Source: an uncultured virus (IMG/VR IMGVR_UViG_3300043094_000104) (lineage: Duplodnaviria; Heunggongvirae; Uroviricota; Caudoviricetes). Taken from it: 20,000 bases of DNA. The notes under the pieces are model-generated. The model was not told the DNA's origin, searched no databases, and saw only the letters and a program-made list of their open reading frames with translations. Position numbers and translations under genes: made by a program. The DNA lies in IMG/VR virus record IMGVR_UViG_3300043094_000104. One strand, given 5' to 3'. Shown here piece by piece: positions 1,083 to 15,667 of the stretch; positions within the stretch are counted from its first letter, which is position 1, and every line of letters begins with the position of its first letter.

Positions 1083-1481
1083 ATGATAATTAAATGTAAA
1101 AAAGATTTTGAAGCTTTTGTAAGTGTTATGATTGCATCTTGTATAAAGAGTGATAAGAAAATTTATATTTATGAAGAAAATAATATAAAAACTAATAATA
1201 TGATTTATAAGCATGTATGTATTGAAAAAGATGTTTTTTCATTTATTTATAGTTTTTCTAAAACATCTAGCCTTCAGTTTGCTCATCAAAAACTTGATTC
1301 AGAAAGAATTTATAATATGTTTAAACAAGGGGAAGAAATTTCTTCTAATATTAATCTTTATCTTATTGATTGTGAACATAGTTTAACACATGATTTTAAT
1401 CTTACTTTATCAAATGAAGAAATCAATAAAGAAATTCATTCAATATGTAATTACATTGAAGTTGTACTTAATGTAATCTAA
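1083..1481 (+). CDS. Hypothetical phage protein (132 aa), possible distant paralog of 616..1071
   Basis: AAGGAG RBS. C-terminus EIHSICNYIEVV resembles EIEKVKNYIELV of the upstream ORF. Confidence 0.8.
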   Translation: MIIKCKKDFEAFVSVMIASCIKSDKKIYIYEENNIKTNNMIYKHVCIEKDVFSFIYSFSKTSSLQFAHQKLDSERIYNMFKQGEEISSNINLYLIDCEHSLTHDFNLTLSNEEINKEIHSICNYIEVVLNVI

Positions 1482-1500
1482 AATAAATAAATTTTAATTT

Positions 1501-1544
1501 AATACATAAGCTTATTTTAAATAAGCTTATGTATTTTTTTTTTT
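1501..1544 (+). terminator. Intrinsic terminator
   Basis: AATACATAAGCTTATTT / AAATAAGCTTATGTATT hairpin followed by a long T-run. Confidence 0.85.
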
Positions 1545-1587
1545 GTATTTAATTATAATGCTGAATATATATTATAATTGCGAATAA
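1544..1587 (+). promoter_or_regulatory. Putative phage early promoter cassette, copy 1 (core TATATATTAT at 1566-1575)
   Basis: 43/44 nt identical to 2319..2362. The core recurs upstream of several + strand genes and resembles phiKZ/AR9-type early promoter motifs. Confidence 0.7.
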
Positions 1588-1630
1588 AGTATTTAATTAC
1601 TTATATTCATACTTAGTGTAGATAATTAAA

Positions 1631-1745
1631 TCCAATAAGCACTTAAATAAATATTGGAGTTTGTATGTTCCCTTCGAAGAAACTCTTGGTTGAAAAGATA
1701 TATACCATATAAGAGATAACAGAGTAAAGGTAAATTAGTACAAAT
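1631..1745 (+). ncRNA. Unidentified structured 5' leader RNA, copy 1
   Basis: Hairpin TCCAATA/TATTGGA, outer stem GTTTGTA/TACAAAT, inner stems CTCTT/AAGAG and GGT/ACC around the loop TGAAAAGATAT. Covaries with the copy at 2402..2508. Confidence 0.6.
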
Positions 1746-1762
1746 ATATCTTGGAGGTCATT

Positions 1763-2230
1763 ATGACTAATCGGGCTAAAGAGAGTAAAGAAAAATGTGT
1801 GAATATGTTCACTTTTCAACTTCCGCTTATCCTGAGTACTTATCAGCTACATGCTAATATGAAAAACACTCAAGAAGGCTTAGCTGAAATACCCGAAATC
1901 AAATTGGATGAAAATATGGCTAAGAGCTTAATCTTATCCAATTCCATTATTCTTGAAAAAGATAATGGAGAAAAAACGATCTATGATTTATCTTATGATG
2001 AGTCTATAGATTGTATTGAGGAGTATGATCATGAAAGTGACGATATTCGCCGTTATTGTGCTAGCGTTGATCGTGATATCGATTATTCTAAGAGAATAAC
2101 AAACGCAACATCAAGTCTTCTTAATCTCATTATGGATAAAAAGCTTTATGTCATTTCCATCATTAATGGTGGAGTATGTCTTAAAGAAAGTGAAGGTGAA
2201 CATGTGTATAGACTGTATTCAAAAGATTAA
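1763..2230 (+). CDS. Hypothetical early protein (155 aa from ATG 1763)
   Basis: The ORF track starts at TTG 1751, but GGAGG (1753-1757) is positioned for ATG 1763. Confidence 0.8.
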   Translation: MTNRAKESKEKCVNMFTFQLPLILSTYQLHANMKNTQEGLAEIPEIKLDENMAKSLILSNSIILEKDNGEKTIYDLSYDESIDCIEEYDHESDDIRRYCASVDRDIDYSKRITNATSSLLNLIMDKKLYVISIINGGVCLKESEGEHVYRLYSKD

Positions 2231-2268
2231 TCAATAAAATGTGTGGAAAGGAGAATGATATTGATGAT

Positions 2269-2302
2269 TAAAAAACGTACTGTAATGGTGCGTTTTTTTT
2301 TT
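2269..2302 (+). terminator. Intrinsic terminator
   Basis: AAAAACGTAC-TGTAATG-GTGCGTTTTT stem-loop with a long T-run. Confidence 0.75.
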
Positions 2303-2318
2303 AGTAAAAATTATTGAC

Positions 2319-2362
2319 TGTATTTAATTATAATGCTGAATATATATTATAATTGTGAATAA
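2319..2362 (+). promoter_or_regulatory. Putative phage early promoter cassette, copy 2 (core TATATATTAT at 2341-2350)
   Basis: Near-identical to 1544..1587. Confidence 0.7.
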
Positions 2363-2401
2363 GAATAATTTATATTCTATTCAAATAAGGATGAGTATGA
2401 A

Positions 2402-2508
2402 TCTAGTAGCCTTATTACTAGAAATTTGTATGTTCCCGAAAAACATGTATGGTTGAAAAGATATAATACCAATATACATGAGAAAAGAGTAGGTAAATAG
2501 TACAAGTT
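2402..2508 (+). ncRNA. Unidentified structured 5' leader RNA, copy 2
   Basis: Hairpin TCTAGTAG/TTACTAGA, outer stem AATTTGTA/TACAAGTT, inner stems CATGTAT/ATACATG and GGT/ACC around the loop TGAAAAGATAT. Confidence 0.6.
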
Positions 2509-2529
2509 AATATTCAAAAGGAGTTTATT

Positions 2530-2937
2530 ATGTTTACTATTAATTCTGTTGAAGATTTCAAAATGATTGTAAAAAGAGTTTTAGAAGTTGCTGCAACAGG
2601 TGAAAAGGACATAAGAACTGTAAAATCCTTTAACGATAACGATGATGACTGGTTTGTAGGAATCGTCATTGAAGATGATGAAGCTCGCAATATGGTTACA
2701 ATTCAGGGAGGAAGAAATAATGACTATATTGTAGCAGATCTTTTCTTTAACGTTAAGGAGAAGGATGTAAATCTTCTTATGAATGAAAAGTATTACGGAA
2801 ACGGTAATCTCTGCCATCTGGTTAGAGTTAATGAAGATTTTACCGCAGTGCTTTCCATTCGCAGATTTATCGACAATGAAGAAGACTTTGAAGCCCTTGT
2901 CGGTACGGTAAAGTTTATGGTTATGAAAACATCATAA
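2530..2937 (+). CDS. Hypothetical early protein (135 aa)
   Basis: ORF with AAGGAG RBS immediately downstream of the structured leader. Confidence 0.85.
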   Translation: MFTINSVEDFKMIVKRVLEVAATGEKDIRTVKSFNDNDDDWFVGIVIEDDEARNMVTIQGGRNNDYIVADLFFNVKEKDVNLLMNEKYYGNGNLCHLVRVNEDFTAVLSIRRFIDNEEDFEALVGTVKFMVMKTS

Positions 2938-2952
2938 TCTAAACAATAAAAA

Positions 2953-3012
2953 ATAACGGCACTCTTACATATTCATCAAGCTGTTTTAAATTGAATTGTA
3001 GAGTGTCGTTAT
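2953..3012 (+). other. Long imperfect intergenic stem-loop
   Basis: ATAACGGCACTCT-TACA-TATTCA ... TGAAT-TGTA-GAGTGTCGTTAT. No poly-T tail. The 3' arm overlaps a TATATTAT promoter-like core. Confidence 0.6.
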
Positions 3013-3061
3013 ATTATTCACATACGCCTAAAAAATTAATTTTATTAAAGGAGAAAAAAAA

Positions 3062-3283
3062 ATGAACAATATCTTTGAAATGAACAACAATAACATGATG
3101 AGTGACCTGAACAAGGTCTTTGAAGCAAACAGAAAGCAGGATGAAAAAATGGCGGAGAATATCCGTAACATGACAGGAAATAAAAAGCCTGCAACTGAAG
3201 CCATCAAAAATCTTTGGGAGCGTTATGCTCTTGAAGGAAATATTGAAGGTATGGAAAAACTCGAACGAGTTTATTCTATCTAA
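3062..3283 (+). CDS. Small hypothetical protein (73 aa)
   Basis: ORF with AAGGAG RBS, followed by a terminator. Confidence 0.8.
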   Translation: MNNIFEMNNNNMMSDLNKVFEANRKQDEKMAENIRNMTGNKKPATEAIKNLWERYALEGNIEGMEKLERVYSI

Positions 3284-3294
3284 CAACTTCAATG

Positions 3295-3326
3295 TACCCC
3301 CTTTAATTAGGGGGTATTTTTTTTTT
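3295..3326 (+). terminator. Intrinsic terminator
   Basis: TACCCCCT-TTAATT-AGGGGGTA plus T-run. Confidence 0.85.
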
Positions 3327-3377: not shown

Positions 3378-4316
3378 ATGTCAAAAAAGTATACTATTGA
3401 TGATATTAAAGAAATGATTTATAATAAATATAATGGAGAATATATTTGTTTATCAAATGAATATAAAAATAATAAAGAGAAAATTAAGATAAAGCATAAT
3501 ATATGTAATAATATATTTGAAATGAGAAGTGGTAATTTTTTAAATAATAATAATCGTTGTCCTTACTGTAAGAATAAAAATGATGGAAAAACTAATAAAA
3601 CAGTTACTAAAATGACTAAAGAAGATTTTATTAAACGTTTAGATAATGATTATGAGTTAGTCAGTGATTTTATTAATTTAAAAACTAATGTAGACTTATT
3701 ACATAAATCATGTGGTAATATTTATAATGTAAGACCCGATAATTTTTTATATAATAATCATAGATGTGAATGTACTAGAGTTAAGCATAAATATACAATA
3801 GAAGATATTCAAAAGTATTTTAATAAAATAAATGACTATGAACTAATTTCTAAAGAATATGTCAATAAAAATGAAAAATTAAAAATTAAGCATTTATCAT
3901 GTGATAATATATTTGAAATGTCATTAAATGATTTTAAGAATAATAATTATAGATGTCCTAAATGTAAAGCATCTAAAGGAGAAAATAATGTAAGAACTTT
4001 TCTATTAAATAATAATATTAAATTTACTGAGCAAAAGCGTTTCAATGATTGTAAAGATAAAAGAACTTTACCGTTCGATTTTTATTTAGAAGATTATAAT
4101 ATCTGTATAGAATATGATGGTGAATTACATTATAATAAAGCTAGATATAAAAATGATGAAGAATATAATCAGGATAAATTAAATATTACTAAAAAACATG
4201 ATGAAATTAAAAATGAATATTGTAGAGTAAATAATATAAGACTTATTAGGATTCCATATACAGAGTTTGGTAATATTGAAAAGATTCTTAAAAAGGAGTT
4301 GAATATTAATGCCTAG
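3378..4316 (+). CDS. Zn-ribbon repeat protein with C-terminal Vsr/DUF559-like (EDxHD-type) endonuclease domain, paralog 1
   Basis: Three ~60-aa repeats (KH..C.NIFEM...F....RCP.C), then SKGE...LPFDFYL..YNICIEYDGELH...HD..KN.YC..NNI.LIRIPY. Confidence 0.8.
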   Translation: MSKKYTIDDIKEMIYNKYNGEYICLSNEYKNNKEKIKIKHNICNNIFEMRSGNFLNNNNRCPYCKNKNDGKTNKTVTKMTKEDFIKRLDNDYELVSDFINLKTNVDLLHKSCGNIYNVRPDNFLYNNHRCECTRVKHKYTIEDIQKYFNKINDYELISKEYVNKNEKLKIKHLSCDNIFEMSLNDFKNNNYRCPKCKASKGENNVRTFLLNNNIKFTEQKRFNDCKDKRTLPFDFYLEDYNICIEYDGELHYNKARYKNDEEYNQDKLNITKKHDEIKNEYCRVNNIRLIRIPYTEFGNIEKILKKELNINA

Positions 4317-5043
4317 AAAATTAACTTATAAAGAAGTTAAAGATATTATAGAAGAAAATGGTGAATATACTTTATTATCTAAAGAGTATTTAAATAATAG
4401 ACAGCATTTATTAATAAGACATAATTGTAATAAATGTAATAATAATATCTTTGAAAGAAGTCTTTATGTATTTCAAGCAGGTAAAAAATGTCATAAATGT
4501 GCTATAATAAATAGAACTAAATTAAAAACTAAAACTACTGAAGAATTTAAAGATGATATTAAAAGAATATTTAATGATGAAATGGAAGTTATAGGAGATT
4601 ATAAAAATAATAAAACTAAAATATTAATGTATAGTAGAAAGTGTGGTCATTATTTTGAAGGGTATCCTATAAATCTTTTAAAAGGTTGTGGATGTAATAT
4701 ATGTACTATAAGATCTAAAGGTAATGAAAAAATAGATTCTATATTAAATGAATTAAATATAAATCATAAGTCTGAATATAAATTTGAAGATTGTAAATAT
4801 AAAAGAACTTTATCATTTGATTTTTACTTAGAAGATTATAATATCTGTATAGAATATGATGGAGAACAACATTATTCTAAGAATACTTTTAGATATGGTG
4901 AAAAATTTGAAGAACAACAAAAACGTGATAATATTAAGAATAATTATTGTAAAACAAACAATATAAAACTTATTAGAATTCCTTATACTGAATTCGATAA
5001 TATTGAAAACATTCTTAAAGAGAATATAAAAGGAGAAAAATAA
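4309..5043 (+). CDS. Zn-ribbon repeat + Vsr/EDxHD-type endonuclease, paralog 2
   Basis: Two Cys/His repeats plus FDFYLEDYNICIEYDGEQH...RD. Overlaps the stop of paralog 1 by 8 nt. Confidence 0.8.
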   Translation: MPRKLTYKEVKDIIEENGEYTLLSKEYLNNRQHLLIRHNCNKCNNNIFERSLYVFQAGKKCHKCAIINRTKLKTKTTEEFKDDIKRIFNDEMEVIGDYKNNKTKILMYSRKCGHYFEGYPINLLKGCGCNICTIRSKGNEKIDSILNELNINHKSEYKFEDCKYKRTLSFDFYLEDYNICIEYDGEQHYSKNTFRYGEKFEEQQKRDNIKNNYCKTNNIKLIRIPYTEFDNIENILKENIKGEK

Positions 5044-5044
5044 A

Positions 5045-5968
5045 ATGTCAAGAAAATATACTATAGAAGAAGTTAAAAATATGATTCATGATAAATATAA
5101 TAGTGAATATATTTGTATATCGGAAGAATATATTAATAATAAAGAAAAGATTAAAATTAAACATTTGAAATGTAATAATATATTTGAAATGAGATTAAAT
5201 AATTTCTTATTAGGTAATAAATGTCCTTACTGTAAGAATAAAAATGATGGAAAAACTAATAAAACAGTTAAGAAAATGACTAAAGAAGACTTTATTAATA
5301 AATTAGACGATGATTATGTATTAATAGGAGATTTTATTAATCTTAAAACTAATGTAAATCTATTACATAAAACTTGTGGCAATATTTATAATGTAAGACC
5401 TGGAAATTATCTTTATAATAATCATCGTTGTAACTGTACTAGAACTAAACATAAGTATACTATTGAAGATATTCAAGAATTCTTTAATAAAATAGATGAT
5501 TATGAATTAATTTCTAAAGAATATGTAAATACAATTAGTAAAATTAAAATAAAGCATTTAAAATGTAATAATATATTTGAAATGAGATTTAATGACTTTA
5601 AAAATAATAATAATAGATGTCCTAAATGTAGTTCTTCAAAAGGTGAAAATATTATAAGAACTTTTCTATTAAATAATAATATTGGTTTTATTGAACAAAA
5701 ATGCTTTGAAGATTGTAAAGATAAAAGAGTATTACCATTTGATTTTTATTTAGAGGATTATAATATACTTATTGAATATGACGGTGAATTACATTATAAA
5801 GAAAGTAGATATAAAAATAGTCAAGATAAATTAAATATTATTAAAAATCATGATAATATTAAGAATAATTATTGTAAGGAAAATAATATAAAACTTATTA
5901 GAATACCTTATATAGAATTTAATAATATTGAAGAAATTCTTAAAAAGGAGTTGAATGTAAATGGGTAA
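5045..5968 (+). CDS. Zn-ribbon repeat + Vsr/EDxHD-type endonuclease, paralog 3
   Basis: Collinear and highly similar to paralog 1. IEYDGELH...HD motif present. Confidence 0.8.
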   Translation: MSRKYTIEEVKNMIHDKYNSEYICISEEYINNKEKIKIKHLKCNNIFEMRLNNFLLGNKCPYCKNKNDGKTNKTVKKMTKEDFINKLDDDYVLIGDFINLKTNVNLLHKTCGNIYNVRPGNYLYNNHRCNCTRTKHKYTIEDIQEFFNKIDDYELISKEYVNTISKIKIKHLKCNNIFEMRFNDFKNNNNRCPKCSSSKGENIIRTFLLNNNIGFIEQKCFEDCKDKRVLPFDFYLEDYNILIEYDGELHYKESRYKNSQDKLNIIKNHDNIKNNYCKENNIKLIRIPYIEFNNIEEILKKELNVNG

Positions 5969-6722
5969 AAAATTTACTTATACAGAGGTTAAAAATATTA
6001 TAGAAAAAGAAAATGGATATATTCTAATATCTGAAGAATATATTAATAATAGACAAAAATTAAAAATAAAACATTTAGAATGTAATAATCTATTCGAAAT
6101 GGCATTTACAAATTTTTATAATTCTGGTAATAGATGTCCTTATTGTGCAAATAAAATAAGAAATAGAAATAATAAATATAAAATAAGTGATATAAATAGT
6201 TATATGAAAAAATTTGGTTATGAATGTTTATCGAAAGAATATCAAAATTACCGACAAAAATTAAAAATAAAACATTTAGAATGTAATAATATATTTGAAA
6301 TGACTTTTGATAATTTTAAAAATGGTAAAAATCGTTGTCCTTACTGTTCTAATCATATTAAATATACTATAGAAGATGTTAAGAAAATAATTAAAGATAA
6401 AGATCCTGATTATGAATGTTTGTCAGAAGAATATATTAACAATAAAACTAATTTAAAAATTAAACATCTTAAATGTAATAATATTTATGAAGTAAATTTA
6501 AATAATTTTTTGAATAAAGAAAATAGATGTCCTTATTGTAAGACTTCTAAAGGAGAAAAAATTATAAATGATTATTTATTAAAGAATAATATAAAATTTA
6601 TAAGAGAATATAAATTTGAAAATTGTAAAGATAAAAGAGTATTACCATTTGATTTTTATTTAGAGGATTATAATATACTTATTGAATATGACGGTGAATT
6701 ACATTATAAAGAAAGTAGATAT
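5712..6722 (+). repeat. 101-bp identical direct repeat (5712..5812 = 6622..6722) in the nuclease cores of paralogs 3 and 4
   Basis: Direct base-by-base comparison, ATTGTAAAGATAAAAGAG...GAAAGTAGATAT. Confidence 0.9.
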
Positions 6723-6881
6723 CGTGATTCTAAATATAATAAAGATAAATTAAATAAACAAATATTACATGATAATATTAAAAATGAATATTGTAAAAAT
6801 AATCATATAAAACTTATTAGAATACCGTATACAGAATTTAATAATATTGAAGAAATTCTTAAAGAAGAATTAAATTTGTAA
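5961..6881 (+). CDS. Zn-ribbon repeat + Vsr/EDxHD-type endonuclease, paralog 4
   Basis: Three KHL.CNN.FEM...RCPYC repeats plus IEYDGELH...HD. Overlaps paralog 3 by 8 nt. Confidence 0.8.
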   Translation: MGKKFTYTEVKNIIEKENGYILISEEYINNRQKLKIKHLECNNLFEMAFTNFYNSGNRCPYCANKIRNRNNKYKISDINSYMKKFGYECLSKEYQNYRQKLKIKHLECNNIFEMTFDNFKNGKNRCPYCSNHIKYTIEDVKKIIKDKDPDYECLSEEYINNKTNLKIKHLKCNNIYEVNLNNFLNKENRCPYCKTSKGEKIINDYLLKNNIKFIREYKFENCKDKRVLPFDFYLEDYNILIEYDGELHYKESRYRDSKYNKDKLNKQILHDNIKNEYCKNNHIKLIRIPYTEFNNIEEILKEELNL

Positions 6882-13005: not shown

Positions 13006-13782
13006 TTATTTGGTTTCGATAGTCGTTGAACTTAAAATTTTTTCAATATTATCTTTATCAGAAATAGTTATAAAATTATAACCATATTTTAAAGCCAATT
13101 CTTTTTTATTTTTGTCTATAAGTTGTCTTTCTTCTAAATCTTTATCTGTCATATTCCATTTCTTTTTATAGTGTTGTTCACCTTGAAATTCTATTAATAA
13201 ATTTTTAGATTCTATAAAAAAATCATATGGTTTATTAAATAAATATTTATCTTCTTTGAGAATATAGTTATGAATATATTTTACATTATTATTATTTAAA
13301 AATTCTGAGATAAATTTTTCTCCTTTACTCATCTTAGACATTTTAGAACATTCTTTACAACCTTGTCCTCTATAATGATGTAGCATATCCATCTCAAATT
13401 CACCATGAATTGGACAAATTATAATACTTTTTGTCTTTCCATTAATATAATTAAATTTAGAATAATCATATTTATTATTATGGATTTTATTAGCTTTCTC
13501 TTTCCAATTAGTATTTCTTTGTTTATTTGCCATATTTTCTTTTCCACATTTTGGGCAACCACATCCATTTAAATGAATACCAGCTACCATTTTAAATTCA
13601 CCATGTTTAGGACAAATAATAATTACTTCAGAATGCCAACTTTTATATTCAGCTTTAGAATAATCATATTTATTATTATGGATTTTATTAGCTCTTTCAA
13701 CAAAAGAATTAGCACAATTTTTTACTCTAGAAATACTACATTTTCTTTTCTGATCAAGAATAGGATTTTTTCCTTTATACAT
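13006..13782 (-). CDS. Intron-encoded homing endonuclease (two DUF723-like Zn repeats + Vsr/EDxHD-like domain)
   Basis: Two ANKIHNNKYDYSK...IICP.HGEF...GC..C repeats, then SKGE...PYDFFI...LIEFQGEQH. Lies between the Q and R elements, and its last codons (SSTTIETK) run through R. Confidence 0.85.
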   Translation of the reverse strand: MYKGKNPILDQKRKCSISRVKNCANSFVERANKIHNNKYDYSKAEYKSWHSEVIIICPKHGEFKMVAGIHLNGCGCPKCGKENMANKQRNTNWKEKANKIHNNKYDYSKFNYINGKTKSIIICPIHGEFEMDMLHHYRGQGCKECSKMSKMSKGEKFISEFLNNNNVKYIHNYILKEDKYLFNKPYDFFIESKNLLIEFQGEQHYKKKWNMTDKDLEERQLIDKNKKELALKYGYNFITISDKDNIEKILSSTTIETK

Positions 13783-14073: not shown

Positions 14074-14405
14074 CTTTAAATTTTCATATAAGGTCGTTAA
14101 GCTTATATCGTTCTCTTATGAACTGCTATATATTACTATATAGAAAAGACTATATCTTCATAGAAAATATTTCTATGCTCCCCATTTCGATTTAATTAGG
14201 AATTATAAGATTATTACTCTAAACCTAAACCACTTGGCTCTACTCTACTCCCTTCTTCAGCTATTCAATAATAGCTTATAGTTTCGATAGTCGTTGAACT
14301 TTTATTCTAAGAATTCTTAGAATACTTAGCTGCTGATTGTCCTTGTTTTAAGGAGTTTCCAGCAATTAGAGGAGTTTAGACAGGACTCAAGATTATCGTT
14401 GGTTA
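14074..14405 (-). mobile_element. Group I intron 1 in recA (332 nt, ORF-less, IA-like)
   Basis: P1 ACAGGAU/GUCCUGU; P element AAUUGCUGGAAA; Q element AAUCAGCAG; R element GUUCAACGACUA; S element AAGAUAUAGUCU; P9 CUAUAUA-GUAA-UAUAUAG plus further P9 hairpins; terminal G. Confidence 0.92.
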
Positions 14406-15140
14406 ATCCTGTTTGAGATAGTTTATTGCAGCTTGCGTCTTAGCAAATGCATTTATCTCAATTTTTTGAGTTATATGGTTAATTGCAATTAAGATAATAT
14501 TTCCTCTTTCAAGAGGACCTGCTAATCTCTTAATAATAGAATTATTAATTCTTGCAATAGATGTTGCTGACATCTGACCACTTAATTCATCTTCTTCAGA
14601 AATCCCTTCAGGAATAGTTAAAGCCCAACTATCTAATAAAATTACTGTAGGTGGTAAAACATAAATAGGATTTCCATCACTATCTACTTCACCAGAATCT
14701 AACTTAATTTCATCATAAGTTTCAGGCTTATTCTTAAGCTTATCAATAGATTTAACTAATTTATAAATGCTTTCAGAATAAATATTTCTCTGAAGATTCT
14801 TATACTTCTTTTCAATAGTTTCATCAGACCAACCAGAAATAGTTTTAACCCTAGAAACATTAGTTGCTCTTTCAAAGTCATAATGGAAAATATTACCATT
14901 CTCATATGGTTCAACAATAGAACAAGCCATCTTAATAGCTAACGAACTTTTTCCGCTTCCGCTTTTGCCAATAATGGTAACAATTCTACCACCATCAAAA
15001 CCAGTAGTAACTTTTCCATGTTCAATTCTTCCGTTACGATAATCCATTACATCAATACCACTAGTATAAGTAGGTGTAAATGGAATTTCCTCTCCTAGTT
15101 TTTCCTTCTGAATTGTTTCATTAATAAGATCAAATAACAT
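14406..15140 (-). CDS. recA: RecA/UvsX-like recombinase, exon 1 (245 aa; spliced product about 430 aa)
   Basis: TSGIDVMD, Walker A GKSGSGKS, catalytic DFE, Walker B VILLDS, AR, IAINH. GGAGG RBS upstream. Confidence 0.9.
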
Positions 15141-15260: not shown

Positions 15261-15318
15261 TATATATTATAATTGTGAATAAAAGTAATAAGACACCTTA
15301 AAAACGATTACTTTATTC
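15261..15318 (+). promoter_or_regulatory. Putative early promoter (copy 3) followed by a 5' hairpin
   Basis: TATATATTATAATTGTGAATAA is identical to 2341-2362. Hairpin GAATAAAAGTAAT/ATTACTTTATTC follows. Confidence 0.7.
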
Positions 15319-15343
15319 TAATATAATACATAATAATATTTAA

Positions 15344-15667
15344 ATGGTGGCGGAAAGAAATACTATGAAAAATGTTAACGAAATGTCTGCAATGGAATTC
15401 ATCAACTATGCTTGCGAAGTCGAAGAAGCTAAGAAAGTAAAAGTAGTTAATGGCAAACCAGTTAAGGATAACAATAACAACAAGAAGGTTAACAAAAATG
15501 ATAGCAAAAAGGATAGATATATTTGGATAACAAGATTGATATCAGTATATAACATCCCAAGTAATATTTTGGTTCTTGAAAAGGAACAGATTGAAGTTGC
15601 TGTCATTAAGTATACTGATAGAGAAGAATTTGAAGATAGAGTTTCAAAAATTCTCGGTATATACTAA
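15344..15667 (+). CDS. Hypothetical early protein (start may be ATG 15365)
   Basis: ORF between an early-type promoter and a terminator. Confidence 0.75.
   Translation: MVAERNTMKNVNEMSAMEFINYACEVEEAKKVKVVNGKPVKDNNNNKKVNKNDSKKDRYIWITRLISVYNIPSNILVLEKEQIEVAVIKYTDREEFEDRVSKILGIY

Follow-up and report, generated by a model that had tools for sequence, protein, structure and literature searches.

The window analysed here is a stretch of 20,000 nucleotides (nt) from an uncultured gut jumbo phage of the AR9/PBS1 type (IMG/VR record IMGVR_UViG_3300043094_000104) and corresponds to bases 81053-101052 of the phage genome, which comprises 265,109 bp with 24.8% G+C. The capsid protein of this phage is 44.7% identical to its counterpart in Bacillus phage AR9. 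The genome contains two RNA polymerase beta-like matches above the Pfam cut-off (PF00562) as well as one beta-prime-like match above and one below the cut-off (PF00623). Near the left end of the window, two neighbouring expression cassettes, A and B, carry the same RNA element in front of unrelated open reading frames (ORFs). Judged from sequence comparison, this element is classed as a structured, probably cis-regulatory leader in a reusable cassette.

Alignment of window positions 1480-1765 with 2240-2532 reveals the same order of parts in both cassettes, namely an upstream terminator, an AT-rich box, a divergent hairpin stretch, a block of about 87 nt, a spacer, GGAG(G), and ATG (Table 1). 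The two leader copies extend from about 1582 to 1765 (A) and from about 2357 to 2532 (B), and the spacer between the block and GGAG(G) measures 7-12 nt. An exact 32-mer, for which the chance expectation is 0, is common to both cassettes at 1549 and 2324. The homology between the copies begins about 110 nt upstream of the block that was described first, at the promoter, and extends into codons 2-3 of the ORFs.

Table 1. Features of cassettes A and B and start positions of all leader copies. Positions refer to the window unless marked as genome positions.
Feature	Position	Strand	Details
Intrinsic terminator of preceding gene, left edge of cassette A	1501..1545	+	16-bp stem (1501-1535) and T run
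Early promoter, cassette A	1546..1581	+	upstream element GTATTTAAT, core TATATATTAT 1566-1575, 6-nt spacer
5'-terminal hairpin, copy A	1582..1608	+	GAAUAAAGUA / UACUUAUAUUC, -6.8 kcal/mol
Pseudoknot domain, copy A	1615..1658	+	pseudoknot strands AGTGT 1615-1619 with GCACT 1639-1643
P0 hairpin, copy A	1631-1637 with 1652-1658	+	pseudoknot 3' strand in loop; A-rich loop 3 1644-1651
Four-helix arm, copy A	1659..1745	+	P1 1659-1666 with 1738-1745; junction GUUC 1667-1670
P2, copy A	~1671-1674 with 1727-1730	+	CC/GG
P3, copy A	1683-1687 with 1711-1715	+	CTCTT/AAGAG
P4 and apical loop, copy A	1688-1690 with 1704-1706; loop 1691-1703	+	loop holds GAAAAGAUA
Spacer, Shine-Dalgarno sequence and start codon, copy A	1746..1768	+	GGAGG 1753-1757; start codon 1763; small hairpin 1756-1768 around start codon
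Cargo ORF A, 155 amino acids (aa)	1763..2230	+	
Intrinsic terminator ending cassette A	2270..2298	+	
Early promoter, cassette B	2324..2356	+	core TATATATTAT 2341-2350
5'-terminal hairpin, copy B	2357..2382	+	GAAUAAGAAUA / UAUAUUCUAUUC, -6.0 kcal/mol
Pseudoknot domain, copy B	2384..2422	+	pseudoknot strands AATAAGG 2384-2390 with CCTTATT 2410-2416
P0 hairpin, copy B	2402-2409 with 2415-2422	+	
Four-helix arm, copy B	2423..2508	+	P1 2424-2431 with 2500-2507
P3, copy B	2444-2450 with 2474-2480	+	CATGTAT/ATACATG; z = -3.44 for P3/P4 part
P4 and apical loop, copy B	2451-2453 with 2468-2470; loop 2454-2467	+	
Spacer, Shine-Dalgarno sequence and start codon, copy B	2509..2532	+	GGAG 2520-2523; start codon 2530
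Cargo of cassette B	2530..3317	+	ORF 2530-2937 (135 aa), ORF 3062-3283 (73 aa), terminator 3294-3317
Block starts of the seven leader copies	genome 79937, 82712, 83477, 107231, 147422, 178378, 258990	+	

The leader family, its promoter and its cargo genes

A covariance model built from five copies after motif searches (R1) and a second covariance model (R2) find exactly seven leader copies in the 265,109-bp genome, all on the plus strand and two of them in the window, with scores of 54-170 bits for R1 and 87-157 bits for R2. The first-pass annotation of the window had described a duplicated motif; this recurrence is real, but the motif is not merely present twice. An eighth candidate at genome position 220726-220801 (28.9 bits with R1) was rejected because it is located inside a coding sequence and is missed by R2. 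One cassette layout recurs at all seven sites, in which an early promoter is followed by the structured leader, a Shine-Dalgarno sequence, a start codon, and an unrelated small ORF.

In two pattern scans of IMG/VR, 14 of 80 and 11 of 63 loci match R1. Nearly all of these matches have the same scores as the copies of the source phage, and near-identical variants are represented by L047 and L009/L113, so that the matches are regarded as the same phage in other samples. Clearly diverged copies were obtained from a metagenome scan, in which all three loci match (L174, 97.8 bits; L175, 46.9 bits; L176, 99.4 bits); these carry the same promoter box and precede yet other ORFs. The search of the genome and of related phages with a covariance model, which had been proposed together with the first description of the motif, has thus led to seven genome copies and three diverged metagenome copies. 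No leader copy was found in a 305-kb relative with an 85% identical capsid protein (G001), for which 150 of 180 first-look candidates were scored with R1 and 150 of 587 with R2, and there was no match in a related 66-kb fragment (G002). AR9, Listeria phage LPJP1, and Staphylococcus phage PB50 contain no credible match to R1 or R2, and Bacillus phage BpSp contains none to R1, which was the sole model searched there. The best match among these named relatives, a candidate homologue in LPJP1 with 26 bits, was judged to have arisen by chance, as its alignment lacks P1 and most of the arm. According to these comparisons, the leader family is real yet narrow and belongs to one phage lineage.

In the 305-kb relative, the same promoter pattern is matched about 50 times. 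At several of its loci (L216, L218, L234, L235, and L237), early promoters are followed by long, G+C-richer, and apparently structured non-coding stretches, one of which ends with a hairpin and a T run like a stand-alone small RNA. None of these stretches is related to the leader.

The early promoters of AR9, which are used by the injected virion RNA polymerase, have been described with the consensus AAATATATATTAT-(6N)-G+1 (Lavysh et al. 2017, PMC5312081). A promoter core that fits this consensus, consisting of TATATATTAT, 6 nt, and a G, is located upstream of the leader in all 12 rows of a model-based alignment (A5). These rows represent ten distinct lineages, namely the seven paralogues in one genome and the three metagenome relatives. 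Analogy with AR9 predicts transcription starts at G1582 for cassette A and at G2357 for cassette B, and the leaders have a length of about 147-194 nt when counted from the predicted starts. As the promoter type matches the AR9 early consensus, the genes downstream of the leader can be assigned to the early class, which agrees with their first annotation as early genes. The genome contains a dozen or more copies of the same promoter core, some of them in front of short leaders or of a second, different conserved leader, so that promoter and fold represent modules that can be separated.

Most copies of the early promoter have an extra upstream element, (C)GTATT(A/T)AA, at about -38 to -30, which is about 22 nt upstream of TATATATTAT (window 1546-1554 and 2321-2329). 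This element is also present at promoters without the leader and is not contained in the AR9 consensus as quoted in PMC5312081. The second early leader class under the same promoter has three genome copies (window 15261-15343 on the plus strand, genome 106303 and 158748), all of which end with a G-rich block (GGTGGCGGAAAG or GGTGCGGAAAG) just before the ATG. Two of the three copies have AATAAGACACC..AAAAACGATT in common. Within the window, this class precedes an ORF at 15344-15667 (107 aa) without a Pfam match.

Contigs from four animal-gut metatranscriptome runs cover positions 1614-2352 and 2370-3203 and join leader and ORF. The two parts are bridged by contigs at 1740-2352 and 2411-3062, and a further contig (2480-3203) also spans both ORFs of cassette B. 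The contigs begin 13-32 nt downstream of the predicted starts, which for cassette B means at 2370 and 2379; they are absent from 1405-1566 and from the 5' hairpin of A-type copies, which carries no evidential weight. A transcription start downstream of the motif had been named as a possible objection to its function. The predicted start is located upstream of the motif, and the RNA contigs span the leader and the ORF. Adapter sequence is joined to contigs at about 1611-1614, 1649, and 2413 on the plus strand, and these positions may be processing sites or merely fragment ends. The first of them is located just behind the 5' hairpin of a g258990-type copy (the copy at genome position 258990), and the other two fall into the P0 loop. 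The contig depth in runs X1 and X2, which is about 8-fold higher over the leader than over ORF A, was considered as a sign of attenuation and discarded as unusable because the k-mers of the leader are common to the copies.

The seven downstream ORFs encode proteins of 77-155 aa, and an all-against-all blastp comparison yields no pair below an E value of 0.1, which confirms that the leaders belong to unrelated genes. There is no common metabolic or transport theme among the seven. No Pfam family was found for ORF A (155 aa) or ORF B (135 aa); ORF A has one weak match to a PHROG of unknown function (phrog_4763, E 0.0048), and the ORF of the copy at genome position 107231 (g107231) matches another one, also of unknown function (phrog_4074, E 7.4e-10). 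One cargo ORF encodes a small HExxH protein with weak M48 and metalloprotease matches, two encode small proteins that are glycine-zipper or membrane-like, and the others have weak or no Pfam and PHROG matches. The ESM Atlas contains no usable match for ORF A, and the YbjN/CesT-like leads that it offers for ORF B are all below threshold. In six of the seven cassettes, a hairpin with a T run follows directly after the single ORF, cassette B being the sole two-gene cassette.

The cargo ORFs of all seven cassettes have a G+C content of 33-38%, compared to 24.8% for the genome and to a similar value of 34.7% for the capsid gene. Among five neighbouring small ORFs for which it was measured, four have 18-21% G+C and the fifth (4-528) has 30.7%. 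Either an adaptation of the codons to high expression or a foreign origin could account for the G+C content of the cargo. Between the two ORFs of cassette B (2530-2937 and 3062-3283) lies a long inverted repeat, AACGGCACTCT...AGAGTGTCGTT (window 2955-3014, plus strand), without a T run. As the RNA contigs 2411-3062 and 2480-3203 run through this repeat, it is not an efficient terminator; it may be a processing or stability element.

Fold and covariation of the leader RNA

The fold was derived with RNAalifold from five copies and from alignment A5, and it consists of a 5'-terminal hairpin (or a pseudoknot near the 5' end), an H-type pseudoknot, and a four-helix arm. In the arm, helix P2, which comprises CC/GG and one or two further pairs, is followed by a large purine-rich internal loop with GAAGAAA opposite AUAACAGAGUA, by P3, a 3' bulge, P4, and an apical loop holding GAAAAGAUA. 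The conserved blocks of the first-pass annotation are all found in both window copies, with TTTGTATGTTCCC being exact at 1660 and 2425 and GGTTGAAAAGATAT at 1688 and 2451, together with AGAGTA, GGTAAAT, AGTACAA, and ACCA. These blocks had been regarded as unpaired-looking, which does not apply to several of them because they are helix strands: TTTGTAT and AGTACAA form P1, and GGT and ACC form P4. The stems that had been named, corresponding to P3, P1, and P0, and the pairing of the loop with upstream sequence are real in both copies at the coordinates given in Table 1.

In alignment A5, 91.4% of the pair cells form standard pairs, compared to 33.5-51.9% when the partners are slid by 1-3 columns. 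Both sides have changed in 18 of 33 pairs, a number that is not reached in any of 500 shuffles (mean 10.2), and the covariation score is 0.383 compared to 0.170 in shuffles. A5 was fitted to the nested helices and leans toward that structure; the pseudoknot was added by hand afterwards. Because it was absent from the model that made the alignment, its support is independent: four of its five pairs (A5 columns 8-12 with 32-36) have changed on both sides and 93.3% of the cells are paired. The postulate of a structured RNA with covariation and a possible pseudoknot is thus borne out.

The individual helices contribute to a different extent. In P0, three of six pairs have changed on both sides with 98.6% of the cells paired, and in P3 this applies to four of five pairs. 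Among the eight pairs of P1, one has changed on both sides while the remainder are invariant or changed on one side. In P2, 85% of the cells are paired. The value of 62.7% for P4 is attributed to misalignment in A5, as the length of this helix varies among the copies. A structure-blind analysis of the ten lineages with MAFFT and RNAalifold recovers P0 and P1 with covariation. When the lineages are folded singly, P3 is formed in all ten and at least a part of P4 in nine, with the conserved loop at the tip and z scores between -0.69 and -3.44. Helix P1 is closed by G-U in 11 and by U-G in 8 of the 12 rows; on the opposite strand, such pairs would turn into A-C mismatches, which places the fold in the sense transcript. 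The compensatory changes and the G-U pairs in the aligned sequences show selection on the RNA fold itself, and it is regarded as highly probable that the element is a real, selected leader RNA module.

The pairwise identity reaches 1.00 in the junction GUUC, 0.96 in the apical loop, and 0.75 in the 3' internal loop, while it ranges from 0.45 to 0.73 for P0, the pseudoknot, P3, and P4. The junction is therefore invariant and the apical loop with GAAAAGAUA nearly so, while the surrounding helices drift. Loops that are more conserved than the variable helices point to sequence-specific recognition rather than to a generic structure.

A hairpin starting at the predicted +1 is found in 8 of 12 rows with -4.1 to -6.8 kcal/mol, its inner sequence being different in copy B and in the copy at genome position 147422 (g147422). 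In the other four rows (g107231, L174, L175, and L176), the 5' strand of the pseudoknot starts at about +4 to +7. Given the start predicted from AR9, the message would thus be structured from its first nucleotides in every lineage. Loop 1 of the pseudoknot is long (about 11 nt), and loop 3 has about 3-10 nt in nine of ten lineages, with L175 having the shortest, and 2 nt or less in window copy B. As loop 3 is almost absent from copy B, P0 and the pseudoknot, which overlap at 2415-2416, probably compete with each other in this copy. At the 3' side, the arm ends 7-15 nt (mostly 7-11 nt) before the GGAG(G) Shine-Dalgarno sequence in each copy. A start-codon hairpin, GGUCA-UUA-UGACU, has five pairs in 9 of 12 rows, and a change from U-A to C-G at -5/+3 in two lineages lends it weak support.

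Several further structures were considered and rejected. A pairing of the apical loop with the spacer in front of the Shine-Dalgarno sequence (AAGAUAU/AUAUCUU) is significant solely where the spacer has been inherited, with p values of 0.11-0.50 in five diverged copies. An upstream ORF starting from the invariant AUG in UAUGUUCCC, considered in four copies, is interrupted by indels that lead to stops after 3-15 codons, and its upstream GGAG is not conserved. Thermodynamic folding of the whole leader gave inconsistent results with regard to an ON/OFF switch, and for a kink-turn at P2 the GA dinucleotides are inconsistently placed in comparison with the consensus.

Comparison with known RNA elements and possible functions

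The leader does not match any family of Rfam 15 at gathering thresholds, the scan of the window yielding only a group I intron. A permissive scan of 1480-2560 revealed nothing credible over the motif, the best match being DUF805b with 14.9 bits compared to a cut-off of 35.6, and at eight other loci there was no Rfam match over the leader at an E value of 5 or below. The description of the motif as unmatched to known families has therefore held up, and a keyword search of the literature found no description of such a leader. The T-box (RF00230) has no match at an E value of 10 or below in 1480-2560 or of 5 or below at the eight other loci. A T-box-like Stem I with AGUA opposite GAA in the internal loop was rejected, as its orientation is reversed compared to the consensus.

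Structured, protein-bound elements upstream of the ribosome-binding site are known from translational operators and leaders such as the 5' pseudoknot of T4 gene 32 and the sites for RegA, gp43, L20, S15, and L10. These often form a pseudoknot or an irregular hairpin with conserved loops and have a lineage-specific distribution. In contrast to these operators, a single element is found here on seven unrelated genes rather than on the regulator's own, and there is no similarity at the level of sequence or model. Stabilisers at the 5' end of mRNAs are represented by the leader hairpins of ompA and aprE, the stabiliser of Bacillus phage SP82, and the STAB-SD of cryIIIA. The leader resembles them in having a structure a few nt from the predicted 5' end and an internal Shine-Dalgarno-like purine tract, AGAGUAGAGGU, but it is much larger and more elaborate and has near-invariant loops. 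In addition, this tract is paired in P2 in the conserved fold and absent from the lineage of the copy at genome position 258990 (g258990). Triplex-type H-type pseudoknots occur in SAM-II, preQ1-II, and telomerase RNA. In the pseudoknot of the leader, the strands follow each other in the same order (S1-S2-S1'-S2'), and a third loop of 8-10 nt, which is rich in A, crosses a helix of 5 bp. The differences consist in its long loop 1, in the lack of loop 3 in copy B, and in the absence of Rfam similarity.

The early units of AR9 have the same promoter consensus and start rule and belong to the same type of phage, but AR9 has no match to R1 or R2, and among 17 of its early leaders that were examined most are short and none is similar. 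Long 5' untranslated regions (UTRs) and an unexplained motif in early UTRs have been reported for AR9 (Lavysh et al. 2017, PMC5312081). In the T4-type phages RB49 and phi1, the PeSL unit has been described as a sigma-70-like promoter with a transcription-terminating simple stem-loop (Arbiol et al. 2010, PMC2839356). PeSLs, as described there, and the leader cassettes have in common that a short regulatory unit is repeated in front of small, mostly orphan genes. According to the same source, PeSL-associated genes are non-essential (PMC2839356). Cassettes of this kind are plausible substrates of recombination for the shuffling of cargo. Unlike a PeSL, the leader cassette has an AR9-type promoter and a transcribed, pseudoknotted leader of about 135-190 nt with covarying helices, which lacks a U run and continues into the ORF. 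Its structure is located downstream of the predicted start and is bridged to the ORF by RNA contigs, while separate terminators are present upstream.

The element is best explained as a transcribed 5' leader that belongs to a portable cassette for early expression in a jumbo phage similar to AR9 and PBS1, and its most likely role is to set the lifetime and translation of the first messages. For the way in which this might be achieved, a combination of an operator and a stabiliser is tentatively proposed, with a probability of about 0.4-0.45, in which the arm is recognised sequence-specifically by a macromolecule and the 5' structures protect the message. Recognition by a macromolecule is suggested by the lineage-specific fold, the near-invariant loops, the position before the Shine-Dalgarno sequence, the seven unrelated genes, and the structured 5' end. 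The injected virion RNA polymerase would initiate at the G six nt past TATATATTAT, so that the message would begin inside the structure. The 5' structures would then shield the end of the message from 5'-end-dependent decay, and the arm would offer a specific sequence at which an RNA-binding protein of phage or host, or the 30S subunit, could dock. The docked factor would set translation and lifetime of the leader-bearing early messages as one regulon, for example with high output early and shut-off later.

A number of points weigh against this proposal. The core measures about 135 nt and far exceeds classic phage translational operators in size, the trans-acting factor is hypothetical, and the start site is predicted from the analogy with AR9. 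The RNA-library contigs carry no information on strand, true ends, or expression level. P2, a helix of no more than 2-3 pairs, is partly disrupted in the lineage of g258990 and L047, thermodynamic folding of the whole leader fails to reproduce the conserved fold consistently, and the unpaired probability of the Shine-Dalgarno sequence varies from 0.15 to 0.65 over the 12 rows without a common pattern. Furthermore, the relatedness of the ten lineages, seven of which are paralogues in one genome, inflates the shuffle statistics, and the conservation of the loops could partly result from shared ancestry.

If no regulator were involved, the compact 5' fold might act purely in cis as a stabiliser or translation enhancer by blocking 5'-end-dependent and 5'-to-3' exonucleolytic decay and by keeping the ribosome-binding site clear. 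Such a function would be in accordance with a structure that in every one of the 12 rows begins at the predicted +1 or at about +4 to +7, with a Shine-Dalgarno sequence outside the conserved helices, and with the A-rich loop 3 (UAAAUAAA), which is typical of compact triplex pseudoknots. Adapter sequence joined 3 nt upstream of the 5' strand of the pseudoknot in a g258990-type copy, a single weak observation from one contig, also looks like a 5' tail trimmed back to the structure. A purely cis-acting element is nevertheless considered unlikely, as it leaves the near-invariant GUUC and apical loop amid drifting helices unexplained, as well as the 88-nt arm with its conserved purine-rich internal loop, and as other early messages under the same promoter do without it. 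The processing of the transcript is another possibility, in which a self-cleaving ribozyme or an RNase target sets the leader free to act in trans, either as a small RNA that is stable or as a decoy for a protein. In two different copies and two runs (about 2413 in run X2 and about 1649 in run X4), adapter-joined 5' ends lie inside the loop of P0, 2-3 nt upstream of the 3' strand of this hairpin. These ends would fit such an event, but few reads suffice for adapter junctions and one of them has a depth of 3.5. The greater summed contig depth over the leader than over ORF A would point in the same direction if the comparison were valid, which it is not because the leader k-mers are common to the copies. 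As contigs bridge leader and ORF (1740-2352 and 2411-3062), as there is no match to hammerhead, twister, pistol, hatchet, or HDV-like ribozymes at an E value of 10 or below in 1480-2560 or of 5 or below at the eight other copies, and as there would be no reason to fuse a decoy to seven different ribosome-binding sites, processing of this kind has hardly more than a marginal probability.

The architecture of the leader, in which a pseudoknot and an irregular arm with near-invariant junctions covary within a 5' leader, is reminiscent of an aptamer. A riboswitch for a small molecule or ion might control translation if its ligand stabilised P1 and P2, so that UUCCCU would pair inside the aptamer rather than with the Shine-Dalgarno sequence. 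In copy A, the minimum-energy fold of 1616-1765 indeed pairs CCUUC from the 5' strand of P2 with GGAGG and loses P1 and P2, and the 3' strand of P2 (GAGGU or AAGGU) is itself Shine-Dalgarno-like; however, the anti-Shine-Dalgarno pairing is not consistently predicted among the 12 rows. No riboswitch family of Rfam is approached, and the model searches confine the element to one phage lineage, with no copy in G001, G002, AR9, LPJP1, BpSp, or PB50. Because this distribution is combined with unrelated cargo that consists mostly of orphans without a metabolic theme, a metabolite riboswitch, as suggested in the first-pass annotation, is disfavoured and appears improbable. A true sensor, working as a riboswitch-like ON switch on early transcripts of the virion polymerase and freeing the ribosome-binding sites of a seven-gene regulon, is even a little less probable. 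It is based on the aptamer-like fold, the anti-Shine-Dalgarno alternative in at least copy A, and the small orphan cargo, which would possibly consist of genes for host takeover or counter-defence. Its ligand, a suggestion with an equally low probability, might be an RNA such as a transfer RNA (tRNA) or a small signal of the cell that is infected or defends itself, such as a nucleotide second messenger or an alarmone. The phage has tRNA-Lys and tRNA-Asn, and at one position of the conserved 3' internal loop the sequence is AAC or AAA, which may well be a coincidence in an AT-rich genome. The position of the leader directly after the promoter would fit an RNA like the put element of HK022, which modifies the polymerase. 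Antitermination of this type, also proposed initially, is disfavoured because six of seven cassettes terminate right after one short ORF, leaving nothing further to read through. Alternatively, the unit could be a recombination cassette at the DNA level similar to PeSL with an incidental RNA fold. The edges of homology at the promoter and at codons 2-3 fit this idea, and repeated regulatory cassettes that flank orphan genes are described as drivers of modular shuffling in T4-type phages (PMC2839356). Compensatory changes and G-U pairs, on the other hand, reveal selection at the RNA level, for which a DNA site has no need; recombination may well spread the cassette, yet it leaves the fold unexplained. 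A polymerase modifier or a DNA-level cassette is therefore given only a slim chance.

Riboswitch and ribozyme functions are thus less likely than a module that is bound by a protein or the ribosome. From the initial proposal of a phage-specific functional RNA, the phage-specific structured RNA remains, while the riboswitch, ribozyme, antiterminator, and protein sponge that had been listed as its possible functions are without positive support. The known phage RNAs gain a new pseudoknot-containing family with the leader, which also indicates that promoter-leader cassettes are reused modularly besides promoter-terminator ones. Jumbo phages of the AR9/phiKZ type open infection with an injected RNA polymerase, and hardly anything has been reported on the post-transcriptional control of their first messages. 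A leader used by one phage as a plug-in on seven early genes provides a handle on this control. It could serve as bait for a putative binding partner or, in Gram-positive hosts with low GC, as a portable tag for expression or stability, although the narrow distribution limits its immediate reach.

Other features of the genome and the window

The genome encodes five tRNAs outside the window (Lys-UUU, Asn-GUU, Gln-UUG, Tyr-GUA, and Ile-UAU) at genome positions 27389-28963, 182981-183068, and 261715-261791. A group I intron is located at 14126-14415 on the minus strand of the window (RF00028, 79.6 bits, E 4.4e-19), immediately preceded by an ORF fragment similar to RecA/UvsX (14403-15140, minus strand). 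Further downstream on the same strand, an ORF with zinc-ribbon-like repeats is found at 13006-13782. The 20-nt string AGTTCAACGACTATCGAAAC occurs in the intron (about 14299-14280) and a second time after this ORF (about 13031-13012), which suggests a putative second intron with a homing-endonuclease-like ORF. On the plus strand, positions 3378-6881 harbour four ORFs of 244-312 aa in tandem, which contain repeated Cys-pair/zinc-ribbon motifs, one of them with a weak DUF2726 match. These ORFs resemble an array of paralogous genes for nucleases or homing-endonuclease-like proteins.

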